NCBI GenBank assembly: GCA_035530295.1
Contig: DATKVB010000003.1
Span: 85,110-149,109, forward strand
Origin: a bacterium
Lineage (GTDB): Bacteria; Spirochaetota; Spirochaetia; Treponematales; UBA12059
Direction: 5' to 3'
Length of the DNA: 64,000 bases
Positions 10,543-64,000 of the stretch are shown here, piece after piece (position 1 is the first letter of the stretch; every line of letters begins with the position of its first letter). A program made the position numbers and the translations under genes. The notes under the pieces were generated by a model that saw nothing but the letters and a program-made list of their open reading frames with translations, ran no database searches and had not been told where the DNA came from.

Positions 10543-11348
10543 ATTGGTCCGACGGAGTCTTCCTTAGGGCTGTTATCAGGGCCAGTCATTTCGACAAGCT
10601 CATCCCAGTAGCGCTTGGGCATGCGCGAAGCCTGCAACCGGGGGTTCCGCCGCGCTTCTATCGCTATTGATTGATGATAGGTGCGCCACAGGTCACTGAT
10701 ATGATGCTCTTCCTCCGACAGGGGCAAGCCATCGGCGCCAGTGCCCGAGTCAAGATCGAATTCGCTCATGATGCTCCAGCCCTGACCCGGTTCGTGCATA
10801 ATAGCGGATCCTCGTCCCAGATCGTGAATAGCGAAACGCATAGGTTCGAAGCGGGTCGCGAAGTGCTCGGCAACCAGAATCAGCACATCGCAGGCTGGCG
10901 AGATGGGGGCATACCAGGAGCTGTCGGCCAGTTCGGAAAACCGTATGAGTCCGCACATTCTATGCGCTTCCTCGCGTGCCCGCAGAGCCGCCTTTTCGGT
11001 TATAAGCATAGAAGCTTCAGACAAGTCGTGCAGGACAGAAGGCCCTTCGAGCCACAATCGCCGCATTACGGCAGCGACGGCGGAATCCGCTCCCGCAATA
11101 TCTGACAGGAATGCCTCGAGGAGCAACAACAGAATCGCCGGTCCGAAGCGTCTGCTCATGCGCTTCCACAGCCGCATCGCCCGGTCATCATCGCGCACAG
11201 TCGCGCATCTCGCCTCGAAAAGGCTTTCTGGCACATCGGCGCGCAATATCCTGGGAACCGGCTCGCGCGTATTGAGCATATCCGCGCATGCACACAGGAA
11301 TCCAGGAATACTTCCGTCGTGCGCTATTGTCGCTTCGCCATCAATCAT
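10521..11348 (-). CDS. DUF4130-type probable DNA metabolism protein (partner of the radical-SAM protein)
   Basis: About 275 aa. Its ATG at 11348 overlaps the stop of the upstream radical-SAM gene by 8 nt. The call rests mainly on the conserved radical-SAM/DUF4130 gene pairing remembered from TIGRFAM descriptions (TIGR03916/TIGR03915). No uracil-DNA-glycosylase domain is visible. Confidence 0.55.
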   Translation of the reverse strand: MIDGEATIAHDGSIPGFLCACADMLNTREPVPRILRADVPESLFEARCATVRDDDRAMRLWKRMSRRFGPAILLLLLEAFLSDIAGADSAVAAVMRRLWLEGPSVLHDLSEASMLITEKAALRAREEAHRMCGLIRFSELADSSWYAPISPACDVLILVAEHFATRFEPMRFAIHDLGRGSAIMHEPGQGWSIMSEFDLDSGTGADGLPLSEEEHHISDLWRTYHQSIAIEARRNPRLQASRMPKRYWDELVEMTGPDNSPKEDSVGPIYLSPRR

Positions 11349-12765
11349 GCTCAGCGTCCCAGTTGAATTCCAGTTGACGCGGCGCCAACAGAGTCGCGGC
11401 GCCGTCGATGAGCGCGGCGCGAGCCCATGACGCATCAGGCGCCGATGGCCTCGACCAGGCAGGCAGGCGTGGTGATATGCCAGAACATGTCACAAAGAAA
11501 GACGCGCGCTTCATCACTACCCCGAGTCGCCCCAGCGATTCTGCCGTGAGTCTGGCCTGCGTCCTTGCCCTGACTATGCGCGAAGCTGACCGTGGACCTA
11601 TGCCGGGAACCCGGAGCAGCTGGATATAATCTGCAGTATTGACCTCTATCGGAAACAGATCGAGATTCCTGAGCGCCCAAGAACTTTTTGGATCCAGGTC
11701 GGTGTCCAGGAATGGATGCGCTGCATCGAGAATTTCATCAGCACGGAATCCATAGAAACGGAACAGCCAGTCCGCCTGATACAGTCGATGTTCACGGATC
11801 AGCGGCGGTCCAGGTAGAGCCGGCACCCGAGGATCCTGGCCTGCCGGTACGAAGGCCGAGTAGTACACCCGCCGAACATCATAGGCCAGGTACAGGTTCT
11901 CGGCGAGAGTCAGTATGGTCGCATCGCTTTCTGGACTCGCCCCGACAACAAGTTGGGTCGTCTGCCCAGCTGGCAGGACGGCGGAGGAGGGGTTGCGGTA
12001 CCTGTCGGCGCGGGCAGCCATAACCGACGGACGGGCAATTTCGGCCTCGTTGCCGGACACCATCGGTCGTGATACTGGAGCTTCGGCACCGCGGGTCGCG
12101 GGCAGGGTCAAGGGGACTTGATCCGCTGGCGAACTCATTGTCGGGGCTATCGCCATTCGCCGCGGTTCAAAGCCGCTGGCTCTGGCCAGCGTGCGCATGA
12201 CTCCGAATATTGCGGCTGGCTTCTTGTCAGGCGCCACTCGTTCGAGACTGGCGGCCGTTGGCAACTCGATATTGACGGAGACACGGTCCGCCCAACGTGC
12301 TGCCTCGCATACCAGTTCTGATGAGGCACCGGGTATTGCCTTCAGGTGAAGGTAGCCATTCCATCGTTCGCGCGTTCGAAGTGTCTTGGCAACTCCTATC
12401 ATGCGTTCCATCGTGGCATCCGGGCAGCCGACGACGCCGGAGGACAGAAAGAGTCCTTCTATGTAATTGCGTTTATAAAAATCAATAACCAGTCGGACGA
12501 GCTCGTCGGGTTCGAAGCCGGTTCTTGCAATATCGTTGGATCGTCTATTGATGCAATAGGCGCAGTCGTAGGCGCACGCGTTGGAAAGCAGAACCTTGAG
12601 CAACGATACGCAGCGGCCGTCTGCTGCCCACGAATGGCATATTCCACCTACCGCCCCATTTCCGATGCCGCCAGCGATTGTGGGGCGTGCGCTTCCTGAG
12701 GACGAGCACGAGGCGTCGTATTTGGCGGCAGCAGACAGGATCCGAAGCTTATGAATCGCATCCAT
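11341..12765 (-). CDS. putative DNA modification/repair radical SAM protein
   Basis: N-terminal AKYDASCSSSG, radical-SAM cluster motif NACAYDCAYCINR (CX3CX2C), and a C-terminal helix-hairpin-helix LLRVPGIGPRSASRIVRAR. ATG 12765 is preceded by GGGAGGA. The ORF-track 50-aa extension is rejected. Confidence 0.75.
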   Translation of the reverse strand: MDAIHKLRILSAAAKYDASCSSSGSARPTIAGGIGNGAVGGICHSWAADGRCVSLLKVLLSNACAYDCAYCINRRSNDIARTGFEPDELVRLVIDFYKRNYIEGLFLSSGVVGCPDATMERMIGVAKTLRTRERWNGYLHLKAIPGASSELVCEAARWADRVSVNIELPTAASLERVAPDKKPAAIFGVMRTLARASGFEPRRMAIAPTMSSPADQVPLTLPATRGAEAPVSRPMVSGNEAEIARPSVMAARADRYRNPSSAVLPAGQTTQLVVGASPESDATILTLAENLYLAYDVRRVYYSAFVPAGQDPRVPALPGPPLIREHRLYQADWLFRFYGFRADEILDAAHPFLDTDLDPKSSWALRNLDLFPIEVNTADYIQLLRVPGIGPRSASRIVRARTQARLTAESLGRLGVVMKRASFFVTCSGISPRLPAWSRPSAPDASWARAALIDGAATLLAPRQLEFNWDAEHD

Positions 12766-15943: not shown

Positions 15944-16858
15944 ATGCGCTTCCTGAAGCCACTCATGCATGCTACTGGATTTGTGCTGGTGATCATCGCG
16001 ATGGCGCTATGCCCGATTCTATTCGTTGTTAAAGATGGGCATGTGGTGATCAATGCAGCGATTGCGCTCGGTTTCGTTGCAGACTGGTTCTCAGGGTTGG
16101 CTGATGGAAGCTCATGGATCTTCTCAAGCGGATCCACAACATGGAATTTTGCAGACGTTGTGCCGAAATTTGCCTTCGTGACCCTGTCATACCTGGCGAT
16201 TCCCGGGATACTGGGGCTCGTCGGCGGATTTGCATTTGGTCTGACACGTGATCCGCTAAGGAGCCGGCACCGGCATCGGTTTACTGATACTGCACTGAAC
16301 GCGTTGTTCGCGCTGCCGGATTTTGTGCTCGCGGTATTGCTGCAATTGCTGGTCATAGTCGTACTAGATATCACCGGGCACAAGCTCTTCACTATTTCAT
16401 ACGATACGAGTCACGGAATCCTCTTGGCTCTGCCGCTTGTCGTCATGACGCTCTATCCGCTCATCTATTCGTACCGCATGGTGCTGCGTTCGGCCAGGCA
16501 CACCAGCGGGGCATCATTCATGGTCGATGCCGAGGCCCGTGGCGTTTCGAAGGCGAGCCTCAGATACAAACACATGGGTGTTGCCGTACTTGCGTCGATG
16601 AAGACGGAACTACCTTCAATCGTCGCCATCATGATGACTTCGATCTTCGTGGTCGAGTACTCATTCTCGTTGCCAGGCATGACTCGATGGCTATTTACGG
16701 TGGCATTCTCGGGCAGCAGGCGGGGATGGTACGATAACTATCAGTTTGCGCTCGCACTCAATATCCTCCTCTGCATGGCGGCGGCGTACTTTATAACGAT
16801 GCTGGTATTACGATTGACACTCGCATCGCTGAAGGCGGCTGTGGTTCATGCGCTATAA
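15944..16858 (+). CDS. divergent ABC transporter permease (DppB/OppB-like)
   Basis: 304 aa, polytopic. The region SFMVDAEARGVSKASLRYKHMGVAVLASMKTELPSIVAIMMTSIFVVEYSFSLPGMTRWLF parallels the conserved DppB loop (..ARAKGLS....KHALRN....FSWPGLGRL). Confidence 0.6.
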   Translation: MRFLKPLMHATGFVLVIIAMALCPILFVVKDGHVVINAAIALGFVADWFSGLADGSSWIFSSGSTTWNFADVVPKFAFVTLSYLAIPGILGLVGGFAFGLTRDPLRSRHRHRFTDTALNALFALPDFVLAVLLQLLVIVVLDITGHKLFTISYDTSHGILLALPLVVMTLYPLIYSYRMVLRSARHTSGASFMVDAEARGVSKASLRYKHMGVAVLASMKTELPSIVAIMMTSIFVVEYSFSLPGMTRWLFTVAFSGSRRGWYDNYQFALALNILLCMAAAYFITMLVLRLTLASLKAAVVHAL

Positions 16859-49934: not shown

Positions 49935-49981
49935 GATGGAGCAACTTCAATCGTCCGCCTTCTTCGTGCTATAGTGTGCCC

Positions 49982-51796
49982 ATGGCATCGAAATCATCTG
50001 CCTCTTCGTACGACGAATCAAAGATAAAGACGCTCTCATCGCTTGAGCACATACGCCTGCGGACCGGCATGTATATCGGCCGCCTGGGCAGCGGCAACAA
50101 CCCCGACGACGGCATCTATGTGCTGCTCAAGGAAGTTGTGGACAACTCCGTTGACGAGTTCATCATGGGCAGCGGTGATCGCATAACGGTAACGGTCCAC
50201 GAAGGCACCGTATCGGTCCGGGACCGCGGGCGCGGCATACCGCTTGGCAAGGTCATCGACTGCGTATCTATCATCAACACCGGAGCCAAGTACTCTGACG
50301 ATGTGTTCCAGTTCTCCGTGGGCCTCAACGGCGTTGGCACCAAGGCGGTCAACGCCCTGTCATCGGACTTCCGCGTCGTCTCGTACCGCGAAGGCAAGTA
50401 CCTGGAGGCGGTGTTTCAGCGCGGCGTCCTCAAGAGCAAGCGTGAGGGCAACGCGTCGCGTGAGCCCAACGGCACGCTGGTCGAATTTACTCCCGACGAG
50501 CAGATGTTCGGCGAGTATGCCTACAACATGGAGTTCGTCGAGAAGCGGATGCGCCACTATGCGTATCTGAACTCGGGCCTGACACTCGAGCTGAACGGCC
50601 AGGAATTCGCCAGCCAGAACGGCATCCTCGATTTGCTCAAGGACGAGACGGGCGAAGACGTACTCTACGATGCCGGTTACTGGCGCGGCGACCGCATCGA
50701 GTTTTCATTCACGCACACGAACAACTACGGCGAGGAATACTTCAGTTTCGTCAATGGCCAGTACACGTCCGACGGCGGCACCCACCTGTCGGCCTTTCGC
50801 GAGGGGTTTCTCAAGGCGGTCAATGAGTTCTTCCAGGCGTCATACAAGGGTGAGGACATCCGGGAAGGCCTTGCCGCCGCCGTCGCCATCAAGCTCAAGA
50901 ACCCCATGTTCGAAAGCCAGACCAAGAACAAGCTTGGCAACGGCGACATCAAACCCTGGATAATCCAGGAAGTGGTCCGCGGTGTCGATGACTACCTGCG
51001 GCGCAATCCCGTCGCGGCCAAGAGGCTGCAGGAGAAGATCGCTTCAAACGAGAAGCTCCGCACCGAACTCAATGTCGTCAAGAAGGAAGCCCGCGAGGCC
51101 GCCAAGAAGATAGAGCTCAAGATTCCCAAGCTCAAGGACTGCAAGCTGCATCTTGGCGATGGCCCCGATGCCGATCGCTCCACCATATTCCTGACGGAAG
51201 GGCAGTCCGCCACCGGCTCCATGGTCAGCTCCCGCGATGTGATGACGCAGGCCATATTCAGCCTGCGCGGCAAGCCCGAGAACATGCACGCGCGCAAGCG
51301 CACCGCGATATACAAGAATGAAGAGCTCTACAACATGATGATGGCTCTTGGCATCGAGAATGACATCTCCGGACTGCGGTACGCCAGAATTGTACTTGCC
51401 ACCGATGCCGACTATGATGGCTTTCATATCAGGAACCTCCTTCTGACATTTTTCCTGACATTCTTTGAGGAACTGGTCACCCAGGGACGCGTTTTCATAC
51501 TGGAGACCCCGATATTCCGGGCCCGTACCAAGAAGGAGACGCGCTACTGCTACAGCGCCAGGGAGCGCGACGAGGCGGTCAAGGAACTCGGCGCCAGCAC
51601 GGAGGTCACCAGGTTCAAGGGCCTGGGAGAGATAAGCCCAAACGAATTCGGCCAGTTCATCGGTGATGACATCCGCCTCGTGTCGGTCGACGTACAGACG
51701 CTCAAGGCCGTGCCCGAGGTGCTGTCATTCTACATGGGCAAGAATACTCCTGAGCGCCGCGACTACATCATGAAGAACCTCATAAACGACCTATAG
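49982..51796 (+). CDS. parE: type IIA topoisomerase ATPase subunit, short ParE-like form
   Basis: GHKL motifs EVVDNSVDE and GLNGVGTKAVNALS, plus Toprim FLTEGQSATGS and ATDADYDGFHI. About 604 aa with no GyrB-type insertion. ATG 49982 (ORF track: GTG 49976). The topo IV versus gyrase assignment is inferential. Confidence 0.8.
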   Translation: MASKSSASSYDESKIKTLSSLEHIRLRTGMYIGRLGSGNNPDDGIYVLLKEVVDNSVDEFIMGSGDRITVTVHEGTVSVRDRGRGIPLGKVIDCVSIINTGAKYSDDVFQFSVGLNGVGTKAVNALSSDFRVVSYREGKYLEAVFQRGVLKSKREGNASREPNGTLVEFTPDEQMFGEYAYNMEFVEKRMRHYAYLNSGLTLELNGQEFASQNGILDLLKDETGEDVLYDAGYWRGDRIEFSFTHTNNYGEEYFSFVNGQYTSDGGTHLSAFREGFLKAVNEFFQASYKGEDIREGLAAAVAIKLKNPMFESQTKNKLGNGDIKPWIIQEVVRGVDDYLRRNPVAAKRLQEKIASNEKLRTELNVVKKEAREAAKKIELKIPKLKDCKLHLGDGPDADRSTIFLTEGQSATGSMVSSRDVMTQAIFSLRGKPENMHARKRTAIYKNEELYNMMMALGIENDISGLRYARIVLATDADYDGFHIRNLLLTFFLTFFEELVTQGRVFILETPIFRARTKKETRYCYSARERDEAVKELGASTEVTRFKGLGEISPNEFGQFIGDDIRLVSVDVQTLKAVPEVLSFYMGKNTPERRDYIMKNLINDL

Positions 51797-51804
51797 GAAT
51801 ACGC

Positions 51805-53952
51805 ATGGCATACGTGAAGAAGCTCTTCAACGAAAACTTTCTCTACTACGCGAGCTATGTGATCAAGGACCGGGCCATACCGGAACTTGAAGATGGCCTG
51901 AAGCCGGTACAACGCCGCATCATGCACACCCTGTTCGAGGCCGACGACGGCAAATTCCACAAGGTCGCCAACATCGTCGGCTCGTGCATGAAGTACCACC
52001 CGCACGGTGACGCTTCGATTTACTCGGCCGTGGTCGTGCTTGCCAACAAGGACCTGTTCATAGACAAGCAGGGCAATTTCGGCAACGTGCTGACAGGCGA
52101 CGAGGCTTCCGCGGCCCGCTACATAGAGTGCCGCGCATCGGCGTTTGCCAAAGAGGTGTTCTACAATCCAAAGATAACGGAGTACGAGGAGAGCTACGAC
52201 GGCCGCAACAAGGAGCCTGTCGTGTTCCCGGCCAAGATCCCGGTCGTCATCATAACCGGGGCCGAAGGCATAGCTGTTGGCATGAGCACCAAGATTCTGC
52301 CACATAACCCTGTCGAGGTGCTGGAGGCGGAGATAGACTGCCTGCGCGGCAAGGCCTTCAAGGTCTACCCGGACTTTCCGACCGGCGGCGTCGTCGACGC
52401 GGCCGAGTACGCAGACGGGCAGGGCCGCGTCAGGGTCCGTTCGACGCTCGACACCTCGGAGCCCAAGCGCATCGTCATACGTGACCTGCCATTCGGTGTT
52501 ACAACGGAGAGCCTCATCGAGAGCGTCGAGGCCGCTGCGAAGTCGGGCCGGCTCAAGATAGCGTCTATCAGCGACTACACCACGGACAAGGTCGAGATCG
52601 AGGTGAAGCTGGCCCGCGGCGTCTATGCGCAGGAGACTATCGACGCGCTGTACGCGTTTACCCAATGCGAGCAGTCGATATCGTGCAACCTGCTTGTCAT
52701 CAAGGACGGCCAGCCAACCCTGATGACCGTCAGCGAGGTCATCAGGCACCATGCTAAACGCTTGCTCGCCATCCTGAAATCCGAGCTGGAACTGGACATA
52801 CGAGAGCTGCTCGACGAACAGCATGCCAGGACCCTGGAGCGCATTTTTATAGAGGAACGAGTCTACAAGGCCATAGAAACCAGGAAGACGCAGGCCGCCG
52901 TAGATAAGGCCGTAATCGATGGACTGGCCCCTTTTGCTTCAGAGATCAAGCGCGAGGTCACCGCAGAGGATGTCGAGCGTCTGCTCAGGATCCCGATCAG
53001 GCGCATTTCTCTGTATGACATAGAAAGGGCCAGAGCCGAGATGGAGCGCATAAAGGCTGCGCTCAAGGAGAAGCGTTATAGCCTTGCTCACCTCACCGAC
53101 TATGGCGTTGGCTTCCTGCAGGGGCTGGTCAAGAAGCTGGCTCCACAGTGGAAGCGCAAGACCCGCATAGCATCGTTCGACAGAGTCGATGCCCGGGAAG
53201 TTGCCAAGCGCGACATAGCACTGCGGTACGACACGCAGACGGGCTACCTGGGCACATCGGTTTCGGGCGGGGAGCTCAGGCTCAATGTCTCGCCCTTTGA
53301 CAAGGTTCTTATCATACGCCGAAGCGGGTTGTACTCGGTAGTTCCGGTGCCCGAAAGGCTCTTTGTAGACAAGGGCCTGCTGTACTGTGGCCTGGCAGAG
53401 AAGGAAGCCTTGGCTGATATCGTATTCAGCCTCGTGTACCTGGATCCAAAGAATGGATCTGCCTACATCAAGCGCTGCTCCATCGATGCCTGGATCATGA
53501 ACAAGGACTACCAGCTGGCTCCCGAGGGTTCACAGGTCCTGTTCTTTACGGCCGAGACCAAGAAGGCCTTCATAGTCAAATATGCACCAAAATCGCGCTT
53601 CAAGATCGATACCGAGCGCTTCAAGGTGGAGTCATTCCTGGTCAAGGGAATCAAGGCCCAAGGTGTGAGGATATCGACGAGGCAGGCCCTGGCGGCATGC
53701 GCCGAAGGAGACCAGGGATTGTTCGACGAACCTGGCGCCATGGCCGAGCAGAAACCGGCCGCCGTCAAGTCCGCCCCTGCCAAATCGAAGACTGCCATAA
53801 AGAAGCCTGTGAAGAAGGCGGTAGCGAAGCCGAAGGCCGTGGCCAGGAAGCCAGCACAGAAAACGGCTGCACCTCCAAAATCGCCCAGTGCTGCGCCCAA
53901 GGGGGGGCTGCTCGACAAGGCTTCCGCCAAGAAGAAGCCGCCGAAGAGATGA
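51805..53952 (+). CDS. parC: type IIA topoisomerase DNA-cleavage subunit, ParC-like, with Lys/Ala/Pro-rich C-terminal tail
   Basis: DGLKPVQRRIMH, KYHPHGDASIY, and the active-site Tyr context AARYIECRA. The last 68 aa (53746-53949) are AKP-rich: KSAPAKSKTAIKKPVKKAVAKPKAVARKPAQKTAAPPK. Confidence 0.8.
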   Translation: MAYVKKLFNENFLYYASYVIKDRAIPELEDGLKPVQRRIMHTLFEADDGKFHKVANIVGSCMKYHPHGDASIYSAVVVLANKDLFIDKQGNFGNVLTGDEASAARYIECRASAFAKEVFYNPKITEYEESYDGRNKEPVVFPAKIPVVIITGAEGIAVGMSTKILPHNPVEVLEAEIDCLRGKAFKVYPDFPTGGVVDAAEYADGQGRVRVRSTLDTSEPKRIVIRDLPFGVTTESLIESVEAAAKSGRLKIASISDYTTDKVEIEVKLARGVYAQETIDALYAFTQCEQSISCNLLVIKDGQPTLMTVSEVIRHHAKRLLAILKSELELDIRELLDEQHARTLERIFIEERVYKAIETRKTQAAVDKAVIDGLAPFASEIKREVTAEDVERLLRIPIRRISLYDIERARAEMERIKAALKEKRYSLAHLTDYGVGFLQGLVKKLAPQWKRKTRIASFDRVDAREVAKRDIALRYDTQTGYLGTSVSGGELRLNVSPFDKVLIIRRSGLYSVVPVPERLFVDKGLLYCGLAEKEALADIVFSLVYLDPKNGSAYIKRCSIDAWIMNKDYQLAPEGSQVLFFTAETKKAFIVKYAPKSRFKIDTERFKVESFLVKGIKAQGVRISTRQALAACAEGDQGLFDEPGAMAEQKPAAVKSAPAKSKTAIKKPVKKAVAKPKAVARKPAQKTAAPPKSPSAAPKGGLLDKASAKKKPPKR

Positions 53953-55035: not shown

Positions 55036-55108
55036 TCCCCTGTAGCTCAGCTGGCAGAGCAAGTGGCTGTTAACCACTGGGTCCGTGGTTCAAATCCGCG
55101 CGGGGGAG
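55036..55108 (+). tRNA. tRNA-Asn: tRNA-Asn (anticodon GTT)
   Basis: Hand-folded. Acceptor tcccctg/cggggga (7 bp), anticodon loop ct-GTT-aa, T arm cgtgg-ttcaaat-ccgcg, discriminator G. CCA is not encoded. Confidence 0.9.
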
Positions 55109-55109
55109 C
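55091..55109 (+). repeat. direct repeat copy 1 (tRNA-Asn 3' end, att-like core)
   Basis: caaatccgcgcgggggagc is identical to 55276-55294. Confidence 0.9.
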
Positions 55110-55148
55110 AAAAGAAAAGACCGTCCTTCTGGACGGTCTTTTCTTTTG
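55109..55148 (+). terminator. strong, probably bidirectional, rho-independent terminator
   Basis: 18-bp stem caaaagaaaagaccgtcc / ggacggtcttttcttttg with loop ttct. The A-tract and T-tract are contained in the stem. Confidence 0.8.
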
Positions 55149-55152
55149 CAAT

Positions 55153-55174
55153 AACCCCCACGCGGATTTGAACC
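55153..55174 (-). repeat. inverted partial copy of the tRNA T-arm/acceptor segment
   Basis: The minus strand reads ggttcaaatccgcgtgggggtt, against ggttcaaatccgcgcggggga in the tRNA. Together with the terminator it forms an ~88-bp imperfect palindrome at 55087-55174. Confidence 0.85.
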
Positions 55175-55275
55175 GAGCGAGCGCGCCGCGAATGCGGCGA
55201 AGAGCGGCCATGGAAGGCCGCGACAGCGAGCGAGGCGGGCTGGAAGGGCGAGGCACGATTTCGAGCCCTGGAAGC

Positions 55276-55294
55276 CAAATCCGCGCGGGGGAGC
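55276..55294 (+). repeat. direct repeat copy 2 (displaced tRNA-Asn 3' end, att-like)
   Basis: caaatccgcgcgggggagc is a 19/19 match to the tRNA 3' end 185 bp upstream. The upstream context is not tRNA-like. Confidence 0.9.
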
Positions 55295-55711
55295 TAGTTA
55301 AGTCTTTACCTGATAATGAAAAGATCCCTGGTTAACCCGGGGCTCTTTCGTATTCTGAGGCTGATTGGACGCGAATTGGACGCAGCCAATCAAGCTGCGA
55401 CTCGCCCGTCTGGTCAGGTCAGTAGTACAATGGCGGTGCCTACCACAAAGAAGAAATGGGGCAGGATGGCAGCAAAGAAGCAGCAGCAGCTATGATGAGC
55501 CTTTCTGTCAACTCATATTTGTTCGGGTAATACGGTGGGTGAACAGTAACATTAAATGTCCGCCAGAACCGCTTGATGTAGATATTGTCGAGGACGCGAT
55601 TCGGTCCGGCCGTGGATGCAAGGGCCCTCGTTTCCGCATTGGTAGAGGAATGTCGTTACAGGGAGCAGGGCAGGAGGACATGGTTTTCTCGGTTAGCGCC
55701 GGCGGTTTCTG

Positions 55712-56038
55712 CTATCGCGACGAGGCCAAATCGAGCCGCTTACGGCGGTGTGCGAGTATCGTGGTCTCGGCACAGGAAGCCAGTTCAAGGACGCAAGGCG
55801 CCACGAGGTGGTACTCGACCAGGGTGCTGCGTTTCTCGTCGTCGATCAGACCGGCGGCCTTGAGTTGCGACAAGTGCTTCGATGCTACCGATTTATCGAT
55901 GCCGACCTCGGCTGCCAATTCGCAGACGCACCATGGCCGTACCTTCAGCTTGTCAAGCATGGCTATCCGCATCGGATGGGCTAAGGCCTTGAACATCTCC
56001 GCCTTGAGTTCATAGCGGCGTATTGCACGACTATCCAT
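55712..56038 (-). CDS. ArsR/SmtB-family metal(loid)-responsive repressor
   Basis: 108 aa. FKALAHPMRIAMLDKL, and a CVC motif in the helix preceding the HTH (WCVCELAAEVGIDKSVASKHLSQLKAAGLI). No obvious SD. Confidence 0.85.
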   Translation of the reverse strand: MDSRAIRRYELKAEMFKALAHPMRIAMLDKLKVRPWCVCELAAEVGIDKSVASKHLSQLKAAGLIDDEKRSTLVEYHLVAPCVLELASCAETTILAHRRKRLDLASSR

Positions 56039-56046
56039 GCGCTAAG

Positions 56047-56064
56047 GTTGCAATGTTTGGCAAC
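56047..56064. promoter_or_regulatory. putative ArsR operator 1 (imperfect palindrome)
   Basis: GTTGC-aatgtttg-GCAAC, 9 nt from the arsR ATG. Shares the GTTGCAA half-site with operator 2. Confidence 0.45.
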
Positions 56065-56090
56065 AAAAGTCAAGGAGCCTCTTGACTTTT
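56065..56090. promoter_or_regulatory. perfect 10-6-10 palindrome carrying two divergent TTGACT -35-like hexamers
   Basis: aaaagtcaag-gagcct-cttgactttt, read directly. Confidence 0.5.
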
Positions 56091-56110
56091 CTGTGCAAAG
56101 TTGCAATAAT
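56082..56110 (+). promoter_or_regulatory. candidate sigma70 promoter of the permease/thiol-redox operon
   Basis: TTGACT-17 nt-AATAAT. The -10 lies in the centre of operator 2. Confidence 0.45.
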
Positions 56111-56117
56111 TTGCAAC
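56100..56117. promoter_or_regulatory. putative ArsR operator 2 (perfect 7-4-7 palindrome)
   Basis: GTTGCAA-taat-TTGCAAC, 12 nt upstream of ATG 56129. Confidence 0.55.
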
Positions 56118-56128
56118 AAGAGGTTTCA

Positions 56129-56611
56129 ATGGATACTATAGCACTCTACCTGGTTGCTTTGACGGCACTGGCTGTATCACTGGTCAAGGATAGATCCAGA
56201 ACCGCGATGGCTTTGAAAAAAGCCATGAAAGCCCTTGAAAACATTTTACCGCAGTTTATGGTCGTGCTGATCCTGGTCGCGGTTACCTTGGCCGTACTGA
56301 ATACAGAGACCATTTCACGCTTTGTCGGTTCTGGTTCCGGCGTCTGGGGCGTACTCGGCGCGTTGCTCGTCGGTGCGATAACGCTGATTCCCGGCTTTGT
56401 TGCCTTTCCGGCAGCCGCAGCCCTGTTGGCTGGAGGCGCGGGAGCAACGCAGATAGCAGCCTTCGTCTCAAGCCTCATGATGGTGGGTGTCGTTACCCTG
56501 CCCATGGAGATTAAATTCTTCGGCAAGCAGGCAGCGATATCGCGCAACTCGCTGGCGTTCCTGTTCTCGATCGTCGCGGCAGTGTTTGTCGGATGGGTGG
56601 TGTCGCTATGA
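56129..56611 (+). CDS. DUF318/ArsP-type permease, N-terminal half (split gene)
   Basis: 160 aa from ATG 56129, about 4 TM helices. Gly-rich GSGSGVWGVLGALLVGAITLIPGFVAFPAAAALL. ATGA overlap with the next half. Confidence 0.6.
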   Translation: MDTIALYLVALTALAVSLVKDRSRTAMALKKAMKALENILPQFMVVLILVAVTLAVLNTETISRFVGSGSGVWGVLGALLVGAITLIPGFVAFPAAAALLAGGAGATQIAAFVSSLMMVGVVTLPMEIKFFGKQAAISRNSLAFLFSIVAAVFVGWVVSL

Positions 56612-57144
56612 ACAAGACCCTGAAACGCTACTCAGGCGTCTTCCTCGCCGTCGTCGCCTTCATTGCCTTTATTCTGTTATTTCCGGCATGGCGAGACAAG
56701 GCTCTAGCGTCCATCGTCTTCCAGAGCAGTACCATGCTCCTCGTGATTCCACCGATCTTCATCCTGCTCGGACTCCTCGATGTTTGGGTGCCAAGGCAGC
56801 AGATGATCAAATACATGGGCGCGGGCTCCGGAGCCAAAGGACCAGTACTCGCTTTCCTGCTCGGTTCCTTTGCGGCCGGCCCGTTGTATGGCGCTTTCCC
56901 GTTTGCCGCCATCCTCATGAAGAAGGGCGCTAGTTTCATGAACATCCTGATTTTCATCGGTGCATGGTCTACGACCAAGATTCCGATGCTCCTGTTCGAG
57001 ATTTCGGCCCTTGGCGCCCGCTTTGCACTGTCGCGCCTTGCCATCGACATCGTTGGAATCATCATCATCGCCTTTGCCATCAAGGCGACGCTGCCAAAAA
57101 AGGAAGTAGAGCGACTCTATGCCGAGGCGGCATTGATCGACTGA
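56608..57144 (+). CDS. DUF318/ArsP-type permease, C-terminal half (split gene)
   Basis: 178 aa, about 4-5 TM helices. GAGSGAKGPVLAFLLGSFAAGPLYGAFPFAA. Translationally coupled to the preceding half. Confidence 0.6.
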   Translation: MNKTLKRYSGVFLAVVAFIAFILLFPAWRDKALASIVFQSSTMLLVIPPIFILLGLLDVWVPRQQMIKYMGAGSGAKGPVLAFLLGSFAAGPLYGAFPFAAILMKKGASFMNILIFIGAWSTTKIPMLLFEISALGARFALSRLAIDIVGIIIIAFAIKATLPKKEVERLYAEAALID

Positions 57145-57454: not shown

Positions 57455-57812
57455 TTGTGGAAGCAACAACGAAACCAATCTGATTTATGCATGTTCAGGT
57501 GCAGCCAATACCGGACTCCTGGCCGACCAGGTGATGCGTACCCTGAACCGGGACAAGATCGGCGACAGCACCTGCCTCGCGGCGATGGGAGCCGACCTTT
57601 CTGGCTTCCTCCAGTCCGCGAGAAATGCGACGAGGAATATAGTGCTCGACGGGTGCAAGGTATCCTGTGGAAAGAAGATATTCGAGAAGAACGGCATCCC
57701 GTACCAGCACTACATCATGACCGACTATGAAGTCGAGAAGGGCAAGACGCCTATCACCGGAGACCTTATCGAGGCCGTCGCGGAACGGATAGCCGACCAG
57801 GTGAAGTCATGA
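57444..57812 (+). CDS. DGC-domain putative zinc-binding protein
   Basis: 122 aa, Cys-rich (MPCNCG..., YACSGAANTG, VLDGCKVSCGKK containing the DGC tripeptide). GGAGGT SD. 11-nt overlap with the upstream gene. Confidence 0.65.
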   Translation: MPCNCGSNNETNLIYACSGAANTGLLADQVMRTLNRDKIGDSTCLAAMGADLSGFLQSARNATRNIVLDGCKVSCGKKIFEKNGIPYQHYIMTDYEVEKGKTPITGDLIEAVAERIADQVKS

Positions 57813-58993
57813 GCGCGAAAGAATTGTCCCCGAACAAGAAGCTTCTCATTGTCTTCGGCGTCTTCCTCGCGGCCTACTTCATTCCCTGGGGCGCATCACG
57901 CGTGCTCGGCGCGACGAACGAGGCATTCCTCATGCTCGGCGAGTACGCCCGGCAGCATGTGCTCCTCTGCCTTGTGCCGGCCATGTTCATCGCCGGAGCG
58001 ATCACGGTATTCCTGAACCAGCAGGCGGTCATGCGCTACCTCGGGCCAGACGCCAACCGCCTCACCGCCTATGGGGTCGCCTCGGTCTCGGGCGCCATCC
58101 TCGCGGTCTGCTCCTGCACGGTCCTGCCGATCTTCAAGGGCATCTACAAGAAGGGCGCGGGCATTGGCCCCGCCGTTGCTTTCTTGTACTCGGGGCCGGC
58201 CATCAATATCCTCGCCATCGTGCTGTCGGCCAAGGTTTTCGGCTGGAAGCTCGGTCTGGCCAGGACGGTGGGCGCCATCCTCTTCTCAATTGTCATCGGT
58301 CTCCTTATGGCCCTCATCTACCGCAAGGAGGACAAGCAGCGCGCTGCCGACGCGCGGATGTTCGCCAAGCCGGATGAGAAGCCCGCGCGGAGCCTCGGGC
58401 AGATGGTCGTCTATATGGCGAGCATGATCGGCATCCTCGTGTTCGTGAACTGGGCCAATTCCAAGGGCGGCAGCTCGGTCTGGGATGCGATCTATACCGC
58501 GAAGTACTGGATCACCGGCGCCTTCGCGTTGGTCCTGGTTTACACCCTCGCCAAGTGGTTCACGAAGGATGATCGCCTGGAGTGGGTGGTCGCGACTCGT
58601 GACTTCTCCCTGCAAATCCTGCCGCTCCTCTTCGGGGGTGTGCTTGTCTCCGGTTTCCTGCTGGGGCGCCCGGGGCATGACGCCCTCATCCCGAGCGCCT
58701 GGATCGGGAGCCTTCTCGGCGGCAATTCCTTCTTCGCCAACTTCGTGGCCTCATTGGCCGGCGCCCTGATGTACTTTGCAACGCTGACCGAGATTCCAAT
58801 CGTCCAGGGCCTCCTCGGCGCGGGTATGGGACAGGGGCCGGCGTTGGCACTCCTTCTCGCGGGACCGAGTCTCTCACTGCCTTCGATACTTGTCATCGCG
58901 GGCGAGCTCGGCTGGAAGAAGACATTGACCTACACGGGCTTGGTGGTAGCCCTTTCGACCCTCGCAGGACTCGCCTTTGGTACCATTGTCTGA
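57809..58993 (+). CDS. full-length DUF318/ArsP/YraQ-type permease
   Basis: 394 aa, about 9-10 TM helices. CxC motif in a TM helix (AILAVCSCTVLPIFKG) followed by GIGPAVAFLYSGPAINI. ATGA overlap with the DGC gene. Confidence 0.75.
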   Translation: MSAKELSPNKKLLIVFGVFLAAYFIPWGASRVLGATNEAFLMLGEYARQHVLLCLVPAMFIAGAITVFLNQQAVMRYLGPDANRLTAYGVASVSGAILAVCSCTVLPIFKGIYKKGAGIGPAVAFLYSGPAINILAIVLSAKVFGWKLGLARTVGAILFSIVIGLLMALIYRKEDKQRAADARMFAKPDEKPARSLGQMVVYMASMIGILVFVNWANSKGGSSVWDAIYTAKYWITGAFALVLVYTLAKWFTKDDRLEWVVATRDFSLQILPLLFGGVLVSGFLLGRPGHDALIPSAWIGSLLGGNSFFANFVASLAGALMYFATLTEIPIVQGLLGAGMGQGPALALLLAGPSLSLPSILVIAGELGWKKTLTYTGLVVALSTLAGLAFGTIV

Positions 58994-62786: not shown

Positions 62787-63671
62787 GTGAATACCCTGCT
62801 TGAGTCGCTGAAGTTCTTCTTCTCGATCTTTCTGGAGCTCACGGCCCTCTTCCTGGGCATCAGCACCCTCATAGGGCTTATCTTCCGCTTCATCTCGCAG
62901 GAGGCATTGGGCAAGGCGCTTTCGAAGAAAGGCCTGCTTGGCAATTTCCTGGGAGCCGCGCTCGGCGCGGTCACGCCTTTCTGCTCCTGCTCCACGATTC
63001 CCATGACGGTGGGCCTGCTCCGTGCCGGGGTTCCCTTCGGCGCGACTATGTCCTTCGTCCTCGCCTCTCCCCTGCTCAACCCGATCATTCTGACCATGTT
63101 TTTCGCCTTGCTGGGCTGGAAGGCCACCCTCATCTATGGGGGTGTCACCTTCCTTGCGGCCATGTTCAGCGGCGCGGTCCTTGAGGTATTGGGGCTGCAG
63201 AAAGATGTCAAGAAGGTCAGGATCAGCGGAGGGCGCCAGGAGAGCGACAGGTCGTTGCCTTTCGCGATGAAGTTGCGCGAAGCCTCCCAGGACGCATGGC
63301 ATGATTTCACCGGCATCCTCGTCTATCTGGTCCTGGGTGTCGCTGTCGGCGCGGCGATCTACGGCTACCTGCCCATGGATTTCGTGACGAGGCTCGCTGG
63401 TTCCGGCAACCCCTTCGCGATTCCCGTGGCGGCGATCATCGGTATCCCTCTCTATGTGCGCGCCGAGACCGTGATCCCCATCGCCGTCGCCCTCACCCAG
63501 AAGGGCATGAGCATGGGCGCGGTGCTGGCCCTTGTTATCGGCGGCGCGGGTATGAGCATTCCGGAGATGAGCATGCTTGCGGGGATCTTCAAGCGGCGAC
63601 TCGTGGTCGTATTCGTTGGAGTAGTATTCCTGACCGCGGTGATCGCGGGCTTCAGTTTCAACGTTCTTTAG
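62787..63671 (+). CDS. ArsP-like (DUF318) permease
   Basis: 294 aa. The GTG start abuts the arsR stop. VTPFCSCSTIPMTVGLLRAGVPFGATMSFVLASPLLNPI carries the TPFCSC-type motif remembered for organoarsenical permease ArsP relatives. Confidence 0.75.
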   Translation: MNTLLESLKFFFSIFLELTALFLGISTLIGLIFRFISQEALGKALSKKGLLGNFLGAALGAVTPFCSCSTIPMTVGLLRAGVPFGATMSFVLASPLLNPIILTMFFALLGWKATLIYGGVTFLAAMFSGAVLEVLGLQKDVKKVRISGGRQESDRSLPFAMKLREASQDAWHDFTGILVYLVLGVAVGAAIYGYLPMDFVTRLAGSGNPFAIPVAAIIGIPLYVRAETVIPIAVALTQKGMSMGAVLALVIGGAGMSIPEMSMLAGIFKRRLVVVFVGVVFLTAVIAGFSFNVL

Positions 63672-63684
63672 GTAGGAGTAAGCC

Positions 63685-64000
63685 ATGGCCGACGAGAAGA
63701 AGAAGCCCTCCTGGTTTGGGAAATTGCAGCCCAAAAAGTCTTCGTGCTGCAACGTGGTGATCGAGGAGATCGGCGAAGAAGGCGACCAGCCTTCATGCTG
63801 CGGTGGCTCGACCAAGAAGCAGGACGTGGAGGATGACGAGACCCAGCCGCATCCAGGGACGGTCGCCCATTCGCGCTTGACCATCGAGCTACTGGTGATC
63901 GACCTGGAGACCTGCGCGCGCTGCGTACCGACGAGTGCGCAGCTTAAGGATGCCATCAAGCTGCTGACTCCCGTTGCCAACGCGCTCGATATCGAGCTTG
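63685..64000 (+). CDS. Cys-rich protein, possibly DUF2703-like (5' partial; runs off the window)
   Basis: Own translation from ATG 63685, with a GGTAGGAG SD: MADEKKKPSWFGKLQPKKSSCCNVVIEEIGEEGDQPSCCGGSTKKQ...LTIELLVIDLETCARCVPTSAQLKDAIKLL. Two CC pairs plus CxxC. Not in the ORF track because no stop lies within the window. Confidence 0.5.
   Translation, partial: MADEKKKPSWFGKLQPKKSSCCNVVIEEIGEEGDQPSCCGGSTKKQDVEDDETQPHPGTVAHSRLTIELLVIDLETCARCVPTSAQLKDAIKLLTPVANALDIEL

Follow-up and report, generated by a model that had tools for sequence, protein, structure and literature searches.

tDNA islands and prophages with a crossover at the anticodon loop (the 'A' site) are catalogued by Islander (PMC4383910; Williams 2002 as cited there). 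The island described here is like them in having an intact tRNA gene at one end and, at the other, a direct 3' fragment that begins at the anticodon loop, in having its integrase-proximal arm next to the tRNA, and in an occupancy that varies among relatives. It is unlike them in that the integrase is reduced to five codons and the identity block measures 231 bp rather than ~45 bp, because this block includes, beyond the tRNA end, a terminator and an element of 140 nt (hereafter module X). With a CIME the island shares the absence of integration genes, the retention of both att-type junctions with arm-type repeats, evidence for a circular or tandem junction, and adaptive cargo (ars/metal genes and a toxin-antitoxin pair). 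Unlike that of a CIME, the parent of this element looks phage-like rather than conjugative, because it is a viral contig of IMG/VR that yielded the attP, and mobilisation by accretion with a helper element is only putative here, homologous recombination between the long repeats being an alternative route. The Enterobacteriaceae asn tRNA islands of the HPI/ICEKp type (PMC2801613) and the tRNA-linked islands of the tycheposon type, with their partial tRNAs, remnants and tandem junctions (10.1101/2020.12.28.424599), resemble this locus in the tRNA hotspot (tRNA-Asn or tRNAs generally), the short 3'-end repeats, the accumulation of degraded elements and the subpopulations with excised or tandem forms. 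The present island differs from them in phylum and in integrase lineage, and none of them has been described with an inverted copy of the tRNA end in a conserved structured module. The island itself is of an ordinary kind, a decayed tRNA-linked integrative element with arsenic/metal resistance.

Small stable RNAs that lie in tRNA transcription units and are matured by tRNA enzymes include the phage T4 species 1 and 2 RNAs and the tRNA-like mascRNA. Module X is similar to these RNAs in its length (~140 nt), in adjoining a tRNA gene and in having an acceptor-like terminal helix and 3' end, but its transcript is putative, it is separated from the tRNA by a strong terminator, and its closing helix is a continuous duplex of 15–16 bp rather than an acceptor/T-arm stack. 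The Rfam models, including those for tRNA and mascRNA, did not match X, and a search with X as a unit against Rfam 15 returned no family at E≤10, the only matches being chance ones on the terminator palindrome. We consider it fairly probable that one explanation accounts for the locus, with a decayed island and the conserved structured module X superimposed at the tRNA-Asn gene.

The window analysed (the whole stretch of 64,000 nt) lies in a 572-kb Spirochaetota metagenome contig. ARAGORN made a single tRNA call, an intact tRNA-Asn (GTT) at 55036–55109 on the + strand, which also matched Rfam RF00005 (61.5 bits). The gene order parC, tRNA-Asn is kept in ~35 related loci, and this tRNA-Asn is the chromosomal attachment site of a phage-type tyrosine-integrase element family of the spirochaete clade. 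The first-pass annotation had taken the tRNA gene for an island boundary, and our analysis supports this reading: matching 231-bp blocks bracket an ars/metal/thiol-redox/HipBA island of ~14 kb (13.8 kb), the left junction of this integrase-less island being in the window and the right junction outside it. The left block (55066–55296, + strand) runs from the last base of the anticodon stem and the anticodon loop to the tRNA 3' end, and continues through the terminator and X to a final 'TA'. The right block (window-equivalent 69143–69373, corresponding to 16357–16587 of the extended contig, L001) lies 14,077 bp away and is identical at 227 of 231 positions (98%), with mismatches at 55120, 55150, 55163 and 55260. 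It starts exactly at G + CTGTTAA, that is, at the anticodon loop, and its displaced tRNA fragment, in direct orientation, extends to the 3' end (L001 16357–16400).

The exact copies of the 19-mer CAAATCCGCGCGGGGGAGC reported by the first-pass annotation at 55091–55109 and 55276–55294 were found as claimed (chance expectation 0.05; two copies in 0 of 100 shuffles). A third copy was absent from the window with up to three mismatches allowed, and the proposed check beyond the window yielded two further copies, 14,077 bp downstream; the source contig has four, in two pairs 14,077 bp apart, each pair with the same 185-nt spacing. The 19-mer is a mere part of the 231-bp direct repeat, a larger repeat that the first-pass annotation had missed.

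The left block is followed by the integrase-proximal arm of the island (P'-type arm of attL; 55295–55465, + strand), delimited by alignment with nine relatives. This arm opens with TAGTTAAGT, has a terminator-like hairpin at 55326–55342 (terminator scan) and contains tandem arm-type repeats TTGGACGC at 55365–55372 and 55376–55383. It aligns with the interval between tRNA-Asn and integrase in the nine relatives, in which the repeat columns are invariant. The same motif, TGGACTCAAATTGGACTCAAAT, occurs at the right end of the island (L001 ~16199–16222), and arm-type tandem repeats of the form TGGAC(G/T)C are present on both sides. In relatives, the matching left-arm sequence is directly followed by a 425-aa tyrosine integrase (Pfam Phage_integrase, 1.4e-19; phrog_1, 1.8e-40). 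Here, only a remnant was found (55466–55495, + strand), ATG GCA GCA AAG AAG (MAAKK), followed by unrelated sequence and a stop; the integrase start codons of L011, L017, L029 and other relatives align at 55466. A tblastn search with the L011 integrase against the window and L001 detected nothing beyond these five codons, and integrase domains were absent from the gene tables of the source contig. The claim that the window has no integrase gene was thus confirmed, and of the two fates suggested for it, loss is supported, the gene being cut after five codons. The island contains no integrase, excisionase or replication gene, and no cognate integrase able to act in trans was found in the 64 kb and flanks. 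Viewed as a tDNA island, the locus has the intact target tRNA at one end (55036–55109), a displaced piece of that tRNA at the other, 14,077 bp further downstream, and an occupancy that varies among related genomes, and it lacks an integrase gene within the island; viewed as a CIME, it lacks integration genes and appears from its sequence to retain both attL and attR, with the tRNA-derived core in the 231-bp repeats.

The cargo (Pfam scans and source-contig gene tables) extends from 55712 to the end of the window at 64000 and for ~5.1 kb past it. The metal and thiol genes had been predicted to begin about 400 bp downstream, and the first gene is indeed an ArsR at 55712, encoded on the minus strand and separated from the second 19-mer by 418 nt. 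Within the window the cargo comprises ArsR, ArsP-type permeases, thioredoxin-like proteins, DGC, CMD, DsbD, a CDF transporter, TauE, a second ArsR and another ArsP; past the window there are DUF2703, ArsR, ACR3, rhodanese, LMW-PTP ArsC, HipA/HipB and a 63-aa ORF. The position of this ars/metal/thiol-redox set between 231-bp repeats 14,077 bp apart supports the earlier suggestion that it is an island.

The gene content after the tRNA-Asn is quite different in relatives, as a comparison recommended by the first-pass annotation revealed, and consists of a prophage or integrase, of IS and defence genes, or of ordinary genes. The canonical attP of the family runs from the anticodon loop to the tRNA 3' end, then through (T/A)AGTTAAGT and a terminator hairpin to tandem TGGACGC-type arm repeats and the integrase gene. 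The attP of the viral contig L097 (IMG/VR) starts at the anticodon loop, as does the right-hand repeat of the island, and has no X. An empty site of the exact species was not recovered. The attR/flank junction pattern gave 0 matches in metagenome_contigs, a collection that does not contain the source contigs, and look-ups with the flanking TPR protein returned only integrated forms or contigs breaking at the locus; TPR homologues with 85–87% identity had no tRNA-Asn within 10 kb. In the search for more X loci, DUF6144 homologues at ~60% were paralogues in other genomic contexts, the sole informative homologue being that of L132 (73%).

In another sample (ERZ27256847), contig k141_2750573 has a length of 14,218 bp (14,077 + 141), its ends overlap exactly by 141 nt, and only 2 SNPs separate it from the integrated island. 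Closure of a loop in a de Bruijn graph indicates a circular or a tandem junction, and both fit equally. The chromosome contigs of this sample end on both sides of the locus, and its tRNA, reached after 11,086 bases of identity, continues into a different 3' part. At the four sites that vary, the repeat of the loop contig reads G,G,A,T, and its 'hybrid' character rests on one site, such that the strain may simply differ. It is possible, although we think it rather unlikely, that the island is fixed and immobile and that the 231-bp repeats, or a mixture of strains, led the assembler to produce the 14,077-bp loop contig. The lack of integrase, excisionase and replication genes inside the island would agree with this, long repeats can make assembly-graph cycles, and the integrated form was assembled in three other samples. 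However, a cycle at k=141 requires real reads with the junction combination, because the sites that distinguish the two repeat copies on the chromosome are separated by less than 141 nt, and no branch connects the loop with the chromosome in ERZ27256847, the sample in which the tRNA has the different 3' block.

The tRNA-Asn is followed by a bidirectional intrinsic-terminator hairpin (55108–55149, both strands; inverted-repeat search and reading), with fully complementary arms (55108–55126 and 55131–55149, 100%), a GC-rich core (GACCGTCC/GGACGGTC) and then a T-run, TTTTCTTTT, on both strands. The palindromic stem noticed by the first-pass annotation is real, and it measures 19 bp rather than 18 bp. 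The terminator scan tool did not report this hairpin, because the T-run sits within the extended stem. The inverted copy of the tRNA end is likewise present, with its start corrected from 55153 to 55155 (55155–55174); it is complementary to 55087–55106 at 19 of 20 positions and forms, together with the terminator stem, the ~88-bp palindrome already recognized at 55087–55174. It pairs with the second direct copy too (55155–55170 with 55276–55291, 15 of 16), a pairing that had been missed earlier. Inverted 3'-end copies as a general feature of tRNAs here were rejected: none of the 27 other tRNAs in the fetched loci has an inverted copy of its own 3' end.

Module X (55155–55294, + strand) is a conserved structured element of 140 nt defined by alignment, RNAalifold and a covariance model. 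In the predicted structure, a closing helix P1 pairs the inverted copy (55155–55174) with the second direct copy (55276–55294), and the interior has a 5' domain, modelled as a stem around two hairpins, the second with the loop AUGGAA, and a 3' domain, modelled as a hairpin with a GGA/GGA internal loop. RNAalifold gave 35 pairs, 23 of which show double compensatory changes, and 91% of cells were paired, a value reached in 0 of 500 shuffles, against 30–45% with the partners slid; these figures come from nine sequences and from a structure derived from that very alignment. Across independent lineages within this set of nine sequences, compensatory substitutions were found. The homologues folded singly had a matching topology, X had a minimum free energy of −76 kcal/mol (z = −5.1), and the + strand fold was more stable than that of the − strand in eight of nine homologues. 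A global minimum free energy fold of tRNA, terminator and X paired the 3' part of the tRNA with the 5' arm of X, and was set aside as the biological fold, since the tRNA would form first co-transcriptionally.

The covariance model found 12 full-length matches (99–133 bits), all directly 3' of the tRNA-Asn terminator. Full-length X occurs in eight species besides the source, some of them island-free (L013 and L095 have X without any island), and the species with X have 62–86% ParC identity. The arms of X match, by species, three variants of the tRNA T-arm (TTCAAATCCGCG, TTCGAACCCGGG and TTCGAACCCGCG), and the arms in L132 match a fourth variant, TTCGAATCCGCG. L132 has only 'mini-X' hairpins, arms without the interior, in an array; the interior is therefore not indispensable, since in this genome the arms alone are kept.

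Several identities for X were tried. A tRNA, pseudo-tRNA or tmRNA on either strand was rejected for want of ARAGORN or Rfam support, the Rfam tRNA model matching 55036–55108 only and P1 being a continuous duplex. A coding sequence was rejected as well, the ATG in the hairpin loop not being conserved and the reading frames varying by species, and so was a part of a phage attP, the canonical attP in L097 being without X. Three pattern scans did not find X in IMG/VR (the 15 matches of one scan were chance ones inside coding DNA), and X-like sequences were absent from GenBank phages and plasmids. One conserved hairpin loop of X fits the CANGGANG consensus of CsrA/Rsm-binding sites, and there are GGA motifs besides; no csrA was seen in the window, and a role of X as a possible CsrA sponge, suggested by these motifs, is kept only as a lead.

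We regard it as unlikely that X is a DNA-level array of T-arm/3'-end copies in both orientations, host- or element-borne. Such copies might function as secondary attachment sites (decoys or landing pads) or as binding sites for the integrase, and the hairpins would be kept by palindrome-correcting template switching or tRNA gene conversion rather than by selection on RNA. In every species the arms match the tRNA beside them perfectly or almost so (19/19, 20/20), with two perfect 20/20 copies in L132, and the mini-X keeps the arms alone, all of which would be expected of a DNA-level array. In four species the 3' end of X is the exact point at which family elements are joined (in eight it is the tRNA end), and no conserved promoter was found for X, the promoter scan being empty and a TGCGATAAC-like extended −10 motif occurring in some species only. 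However, the boundary of the family attP suggests a crossover in the anticodon loop, which X does not contain, local template switching does not readily account for covarying long-range helices around 60–105 nt, and the asymmetry in folding energy favours one strand.

The three copies of the tRNA end had been read by the first-pass annotation as scars of repeated integration, excision or inversion. This reading is not supported, since the two extra copies form the paired termini of X, and L013, L018/L094, L025 and L095, which are without the downstream genes, keep all three copies in the same arrangement, an outcome that the first-pass annotation had itself named as refuting its view. It is quite improbable that all three copies are passive attL/attR-type scars and the 185 bp between them junk of an earlier element: the direct copies do flank a 185-bp unit as att cores would, the L018 repeat runs 7 nt beyond the tRNA end (TAGACAG) like a core identity, the terminator+X unit is tandemly duplicated in L095, further decayed units follow in L001, L013 and L132, and degraded elements with extra partial tRNAs accumulate at island tRNAs (10.1101/2020.12.28.424599; PMC5704250), but the interior multi-helix fold is kept via many compensatory changes at 62–86% ParC identity, the same architecture occurs in island-free genomes and is missing from the canonical family attP, and ordinary integration does not yield an inverted tRNA fragment.

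We therefore prefer a decayed island superimposed on module X. The element appears to be a decayed, CIME-like island with long direct repeats on either side, because both junctions carry the same 231-bp block (tRNA 3' part, terminator and X), only five integrase codons are left, and a closed 14,077-bp loop was found elsewhere. This loop contig suggests that the island may still be able to leave the chromosome or to amplify, which would occur by homologous recombination between the 231-bp repeats or by means of a related integrase acting in trans. The presence of the block on both sides would be explained if the element had captured it by aberrant excision or, alternatively, if two terminator+X units had stood in tandem and the element had inserted between them. 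Clade-wide, island or not, X comes directly after the terminator of tRNA-Asn, and its fold is maintained by compensatory changes. We infer that X, read on the tRNA strand, acts as a single-stranded element with a defined structure and is most probably an RNA from read-through of the tRNA-Asn terminator; its transcription is only putative because of the strong terminator that separates it from the tRNA, and a function at the DNA level is as possible as one at the RNA level. The ends of X seem to imitate the T-arm/acceptor end of tRNA-Asn, and the DNA of X would thereby supply a second copy of the tRNA 3' end, where family elements are found joined. We suggest, tentatively and with more doubt than confidence, that X and mini-X form an undescribed class of structured element, RNA or single-stranded DNA, co-evolving with the tRNA gene. 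It is conceivable that X acts as a tRNA-end mimic processed by tRNA maturation enzymes, and also conceivable that it is a host-encoded secondary or decoy docking site steering the placement of phage-type integrase cargo.

The island is a clean integrase-less example that appears in circular or amplified form in nature, and it bears on how resistance cargo goes on moving once its element has 'died'. When a tRNA end is found in additional copies beside the tRNA, these are routinely taken as integration scars and used to delimit islands; at this locus, two such copies are the stem of a covarying conserved structure that is present without the island. If X is functional, it would tie tRNA maturation, or the choice of integration site, to a structured element of RNA or DNA; if it is not, it is still a documented trap in this clade for island callers that rely on att sites.

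The only tRNA of the window is a tRNA-Asn(GTT) at 55036-55109 (61.5 bits with the Rfam tRNA model), and its terminal 19 nt, CAAATCCGCGCGGGGGAGC, are repeated exactly at 55276-55294, as the first-pass annotation had reported. No third copy of this 19-mer was detected in the 64-kb window at up to three mismatches; the chance expectation for the two copies is 0.05, and they were reached in none of 100 shuffles. An inverted copy at 55155-55174 is complementary to 55087-55106 at 19 of 20 positions, and a perfect 19-bp hairpin (55108-55126 / 55131-55149), the GC-rich core of which is flanked by T-runs on both strands, lies between the tRNA end and the inverted copy. The earlier description of these repeats and of the palindrome was correct, but its coordinates were off by 1–2 nt and it did not include the pairing of the inverted copy with the second direct copy (55155-55170 with 55276-55291, 15/16).

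The search for the 19-mer beyond the window made use of a metagenomic contig of 572 kb (ERZ27256808 k141_3145965), found through exact protein matches and identical to the window over the overlap. This contig carries four copies, as two pairs with a spacing of 185 nt each, the second located 14,077 bp downstream of the first and outside the window. Reading and aligning both places revealed a direct repeat of 231 bp (left copy 55066-55296), the copies of which are identical at 227/231 positions and differ at 55120, 55150, 55163 and 55260. It begins with the last anticodon-stem base and the anticodon loop (G CTGTTAA) and extends past the tRNA 3' end and the terminator into the inverted copy; about 100 GC-rich bases separate the latter from the second 19-mer, which is also included. 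The genes between the repeats encode ArsR, ArsP-type permeases, thioredoxin-like proteins, DGC, CMD, DsbD, a CDF transporter and TauE; DUF2703, ACR3, rhodanese and LMW-PTP ArsC; and HipA/HipB and a 63-aa ORF, with no integrase among them. The proposal that tRNA-Asn marks an island boundary is thus borne out by the 231-bp repeats, their 14,077-bp period, a truncated integrase and the occurrence of a loop form in nature.

Two full-length ArsP genes are present (57809-58993 and 62787-63671). The ArsP-type permease at 56048-57144 consists of two short adjacent genes, one encoding 160 aa without a Pfam match and the other 178 aa with an ArsP_1 match confined to the N-terminal half of the profile, and may be split or degraded. 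A second ACR3 and LMW-PTP ArsC pair is found in the chromosomal flank about 9 kb to the right of the island, outside the window (locus L102, 18284-19812); the island therefore duplicates arsenic functions that the genome already has.

The region directly upstream, 49976-53952, encodes a ParE/ParC-like type IIA topoisomerase pair (575-606 aa and 715 aa), and the order parC, (DUF6144), tRNA-Asn is kept in many Spirochaetota MAGs. A scan with the ParC-like protein, with one genome per species, yielded 80 Spirochaetota loci (Treponemataceae/Rectinemataceae-like MAGs, top identity 86%), about 35 of which have tRNA-Asn behind parC. In eight loci, the tRNA is directly followed by (T/A)AGTTAAGT, a hairpin and tandem TGGACGC-type repeats, and the window has the same sequence at 55295-55390, behind the second 19-mer. 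In L011, L020, L029, L038 and other relatives, about 190 nt of this arm precede a tyrosine integrase of 425 aa (Pfam Phage_integrase, 1.4e-19; phrog_1). The left-arm alignment extends through the integrase start codon; in the window, the gene starts as MAAKK at 55466 before it diverges and reaches a stop at 55495. The suspected loss of the island integrase was confirmed, since only this five-codon start is left in the window and tblastn yielded no further traces in the window or the extended contig. The tandem arm motif TGGACTCAAATTGGACTCAAAT is also present at the right end of the island (about 16199-16222 of L001, the stretch of the source contig reaching past the window). In the IMG/VR viral contig L097, the attP of the family contains no full tRNA, only a partial tRNA-Asn from the anticodon loop to the tRNA 3' end, which directly continues with AAGTTAAGT, the hairpin, the arm repeats and the integrase. 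Together, the left arm, the truncated integrase, the arm repeats and the L097 attP identify the island, as judged from sequence, as a decayed member of the anticodon-loop ('A' site) crossover class of tDNA elements (PMC4383910). It is also CIME-like under a published definition (PMC5704250), having lost its recombination genes and retained the two att junctions. The island is an additional case of an already known kind of element; the tRNA-derived structured module is the unusual variant.

This module, hereafter X, occupies 140 nt (55155-55294) behind the terminator. The architecture of 55110-55294, in which a terminator hairpin precedes an inverted T-arm/acceptor copy and a direct tRNA 3'-end copy with about 100 GC-rich bases between these two, recurs behind the tRNA in L013, L014, L016, L018/L094, L025, L028, L043, L050 and L095. 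Two of these loci, L013 and L095, have the architecture with ordinary downstream genes and no integrase, and in L095 (4965-5288, minus strand) tRNA-Asn is followed by a tandem pair of almost identical terminator+X units, giving three 19-mer copies without any island. The first-pass interpretation of the three local copies as integration/excision scars is therefore not supported, the same copies being found in island-free relatives, an outcome that the annotation itself had named as refuting it. A covariance model of X, run on 1.2 Mb of related loci, identified 12 full-length copies with scores of 99-133 bits, each immediately behind tRNA-Asn. It identified none in viral contigs, and no Rfam family matched X. 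The arms mirror the local tRNA: the T-arm variants TTCAAATCCGCG, TTCGAACCCGGG and TTCGAACCCGCG are each seen in both arms, and a fourth, TTCGAATCCGCG, is mirrored in L132, which contains only an array of 'mini-X' hairpins (arms and a short loop) with two perfect inverted copies (20/20). Nothing comparable was found at 27 other tRNAs of the fetched loci. X is absent from the canonical attP and present in island-free genomes, so the simplest view is that it accompanies tRNA-Asn on the chromosome in this clade.

RNAalifold analysis of nine homologues of X predicted 35 pairs. Double compensatory changes were seen in 23 of these, as against 7-10 in controls with partners slid by 1-3 columns; paired cells amounted to 91% versus 30-45% in these controls, in the same alignment that gave the structure. 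The observed values were not reached in any of 500 shuffles, and every homologue folded individually on the same plan. In the predicted structure, the inverted and direct copies of the tRNA end pair as a closing helix of about 15 bp. Within it lie a 5' domain, in which a stem surrounds two hairpins and the second of these has an AUGGAW or AGGAU loop, and a 3' hairpin containing a GGA/GGA internal loop. The fold of the window copy has a free energy of -76 kcal/mol (z = -5.1), and the + strand fold is more stable than the - strand fold in eight of the nine homologues. According to this model, the two extra tRNA-end copies belong to a conserved structured module.

The observed layout is 5'half-[3'half-terminator-X]-island-[3'half-terminator-X]-flank, and either of two routes would yield it. 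Aberrant excision between the two 19-mers could have provided an element with terminator+X, after which this element integrated by the normal anticodon-loop crossover. Alternatively, a canonical element could have recombined within the 19-mer, at the middle copy of a chromosome with two tandem units, for which L095 provides a precedent. To the right of the island and outside the window (L001, 16586-16700), the right repeat is followed by a second terminator hairpin, AAAAAGGTCGATCGGCACAGCCGGTCGACCTTTTTT, an inverted tRNA-end 14-mer, AGCTCCCCCGCGCG, and a degenerate X-like hairpin, GCGCGCAGGATGACAGCGCGC. This stretch looks like a decayed second terminator+X unit, and such remnants suggest that these units accumulate and decay. 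A second conserved motif, GCAGGGGTGAGAACGGCGGTACCCCGCTGTTCGAGGGGTATCCCC with variants, lies downstream of X in several species (L001, about 16725-16790; L013, about 12530-12660, two copies; L132, 2964-3010 and 3150-3195); it forms two hairpins with stems that differ from copy to copy, and may represent a further family of repeats or structured elements.

The integrated form of the island was assembled in three samples other than ERZ27256847. In ERZ27256847, the island was assembled as a contig of 14,218 bp (k141_2750573; 14,077 + 141), the first and last 141 nt of which are identical, indicating a closed loop. The chromosome contigs of this sample stop on either side of the locus, L007 ending 89 nt past the tRNA and the right-flank contig beginning 46 nt after the repeat, so the loop is unconnected to the chromosome there. 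It is rather likely, from these assemblies, to be a circular or tandemly amplified form of the island. The loop differs from the integrated copy by two SNPs, and the four variable sites of its repeat carry G,G,A,T, with the first three bases as in the right copy and the fourth as in the left. Sites 3 and 4 are only 97 nt apart (less than k), so reads with this combination must exist. The pattern would fit a homologous-recombination crossover inside X rather than canonical excision at the anticodon loop or the 19-mer, but this rests on one site and the strain may simply differ. L007 matches the window without a difference for 11,086 bp, as far as the tRNA T-loop, and then (11087-11193, versus 55092 onward) has another T-loop (TTCGAAC), another terminator and another X start; the tRNA 3' part and the following sequence have been swapped as a block within one species. 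A swap starting inside the tRNA 3' half is compatible with capture of terminator+X by aberrant excision; recombination in a hypervariable region could account for it as well. No same-species empty site was recovered by a junction-pattern search of metagenome contigs or look-ups of the flanking TPR protein.

At the tRNA-Asn site of L042 (12636-21000), an integrase fragment broken by an rve-type IS is followed by HATPase and Druantia DruA-like genes, and a P-loop protein (GGGKTHS) is encoded downstream of X in L094 (L018/L094). This varied cargo makes the site a general hotspot, defence genes included.

Family elements are joined exactly at the X 3' end, and not at the tRNA, in four species (window, L028, L043 and L050). 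X may therefore work at the DNA level, by providing a secondary docking site or an array bound by integrase; its arms are kept near-identical to the tRNA and are the sole part kept in the mini versions. However, the apparent crossover site of the family is the anticodon loop, which is absent from X. X may also act as RNA, given the long-range helices among the covarying ones and the preference of the folding energy for one strand, but it has no conserved promoter and lies behind a strong terminator. One hairpin loop matches the CsrA/Rsm consensus CANGGANG, which we regard as a lead only. We suggest, with moderate confidence, that X is a structured single-stranded element of the tRNA strand, maintained by selection, and that its mimicry of the tRNA end has consequences for element location. 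When the tRNA, terminator and X (55036-55300) were folded jointly as one transcript (-150.6 kcal/mol, z = -9.9), the 5' arm of X was predicted to pair with the 3' part of the tRNA across the terminator and the 3' arm with the 5' acceptor strand. This alternative pairing between the tRNA and X could matter if the terminator is read through.
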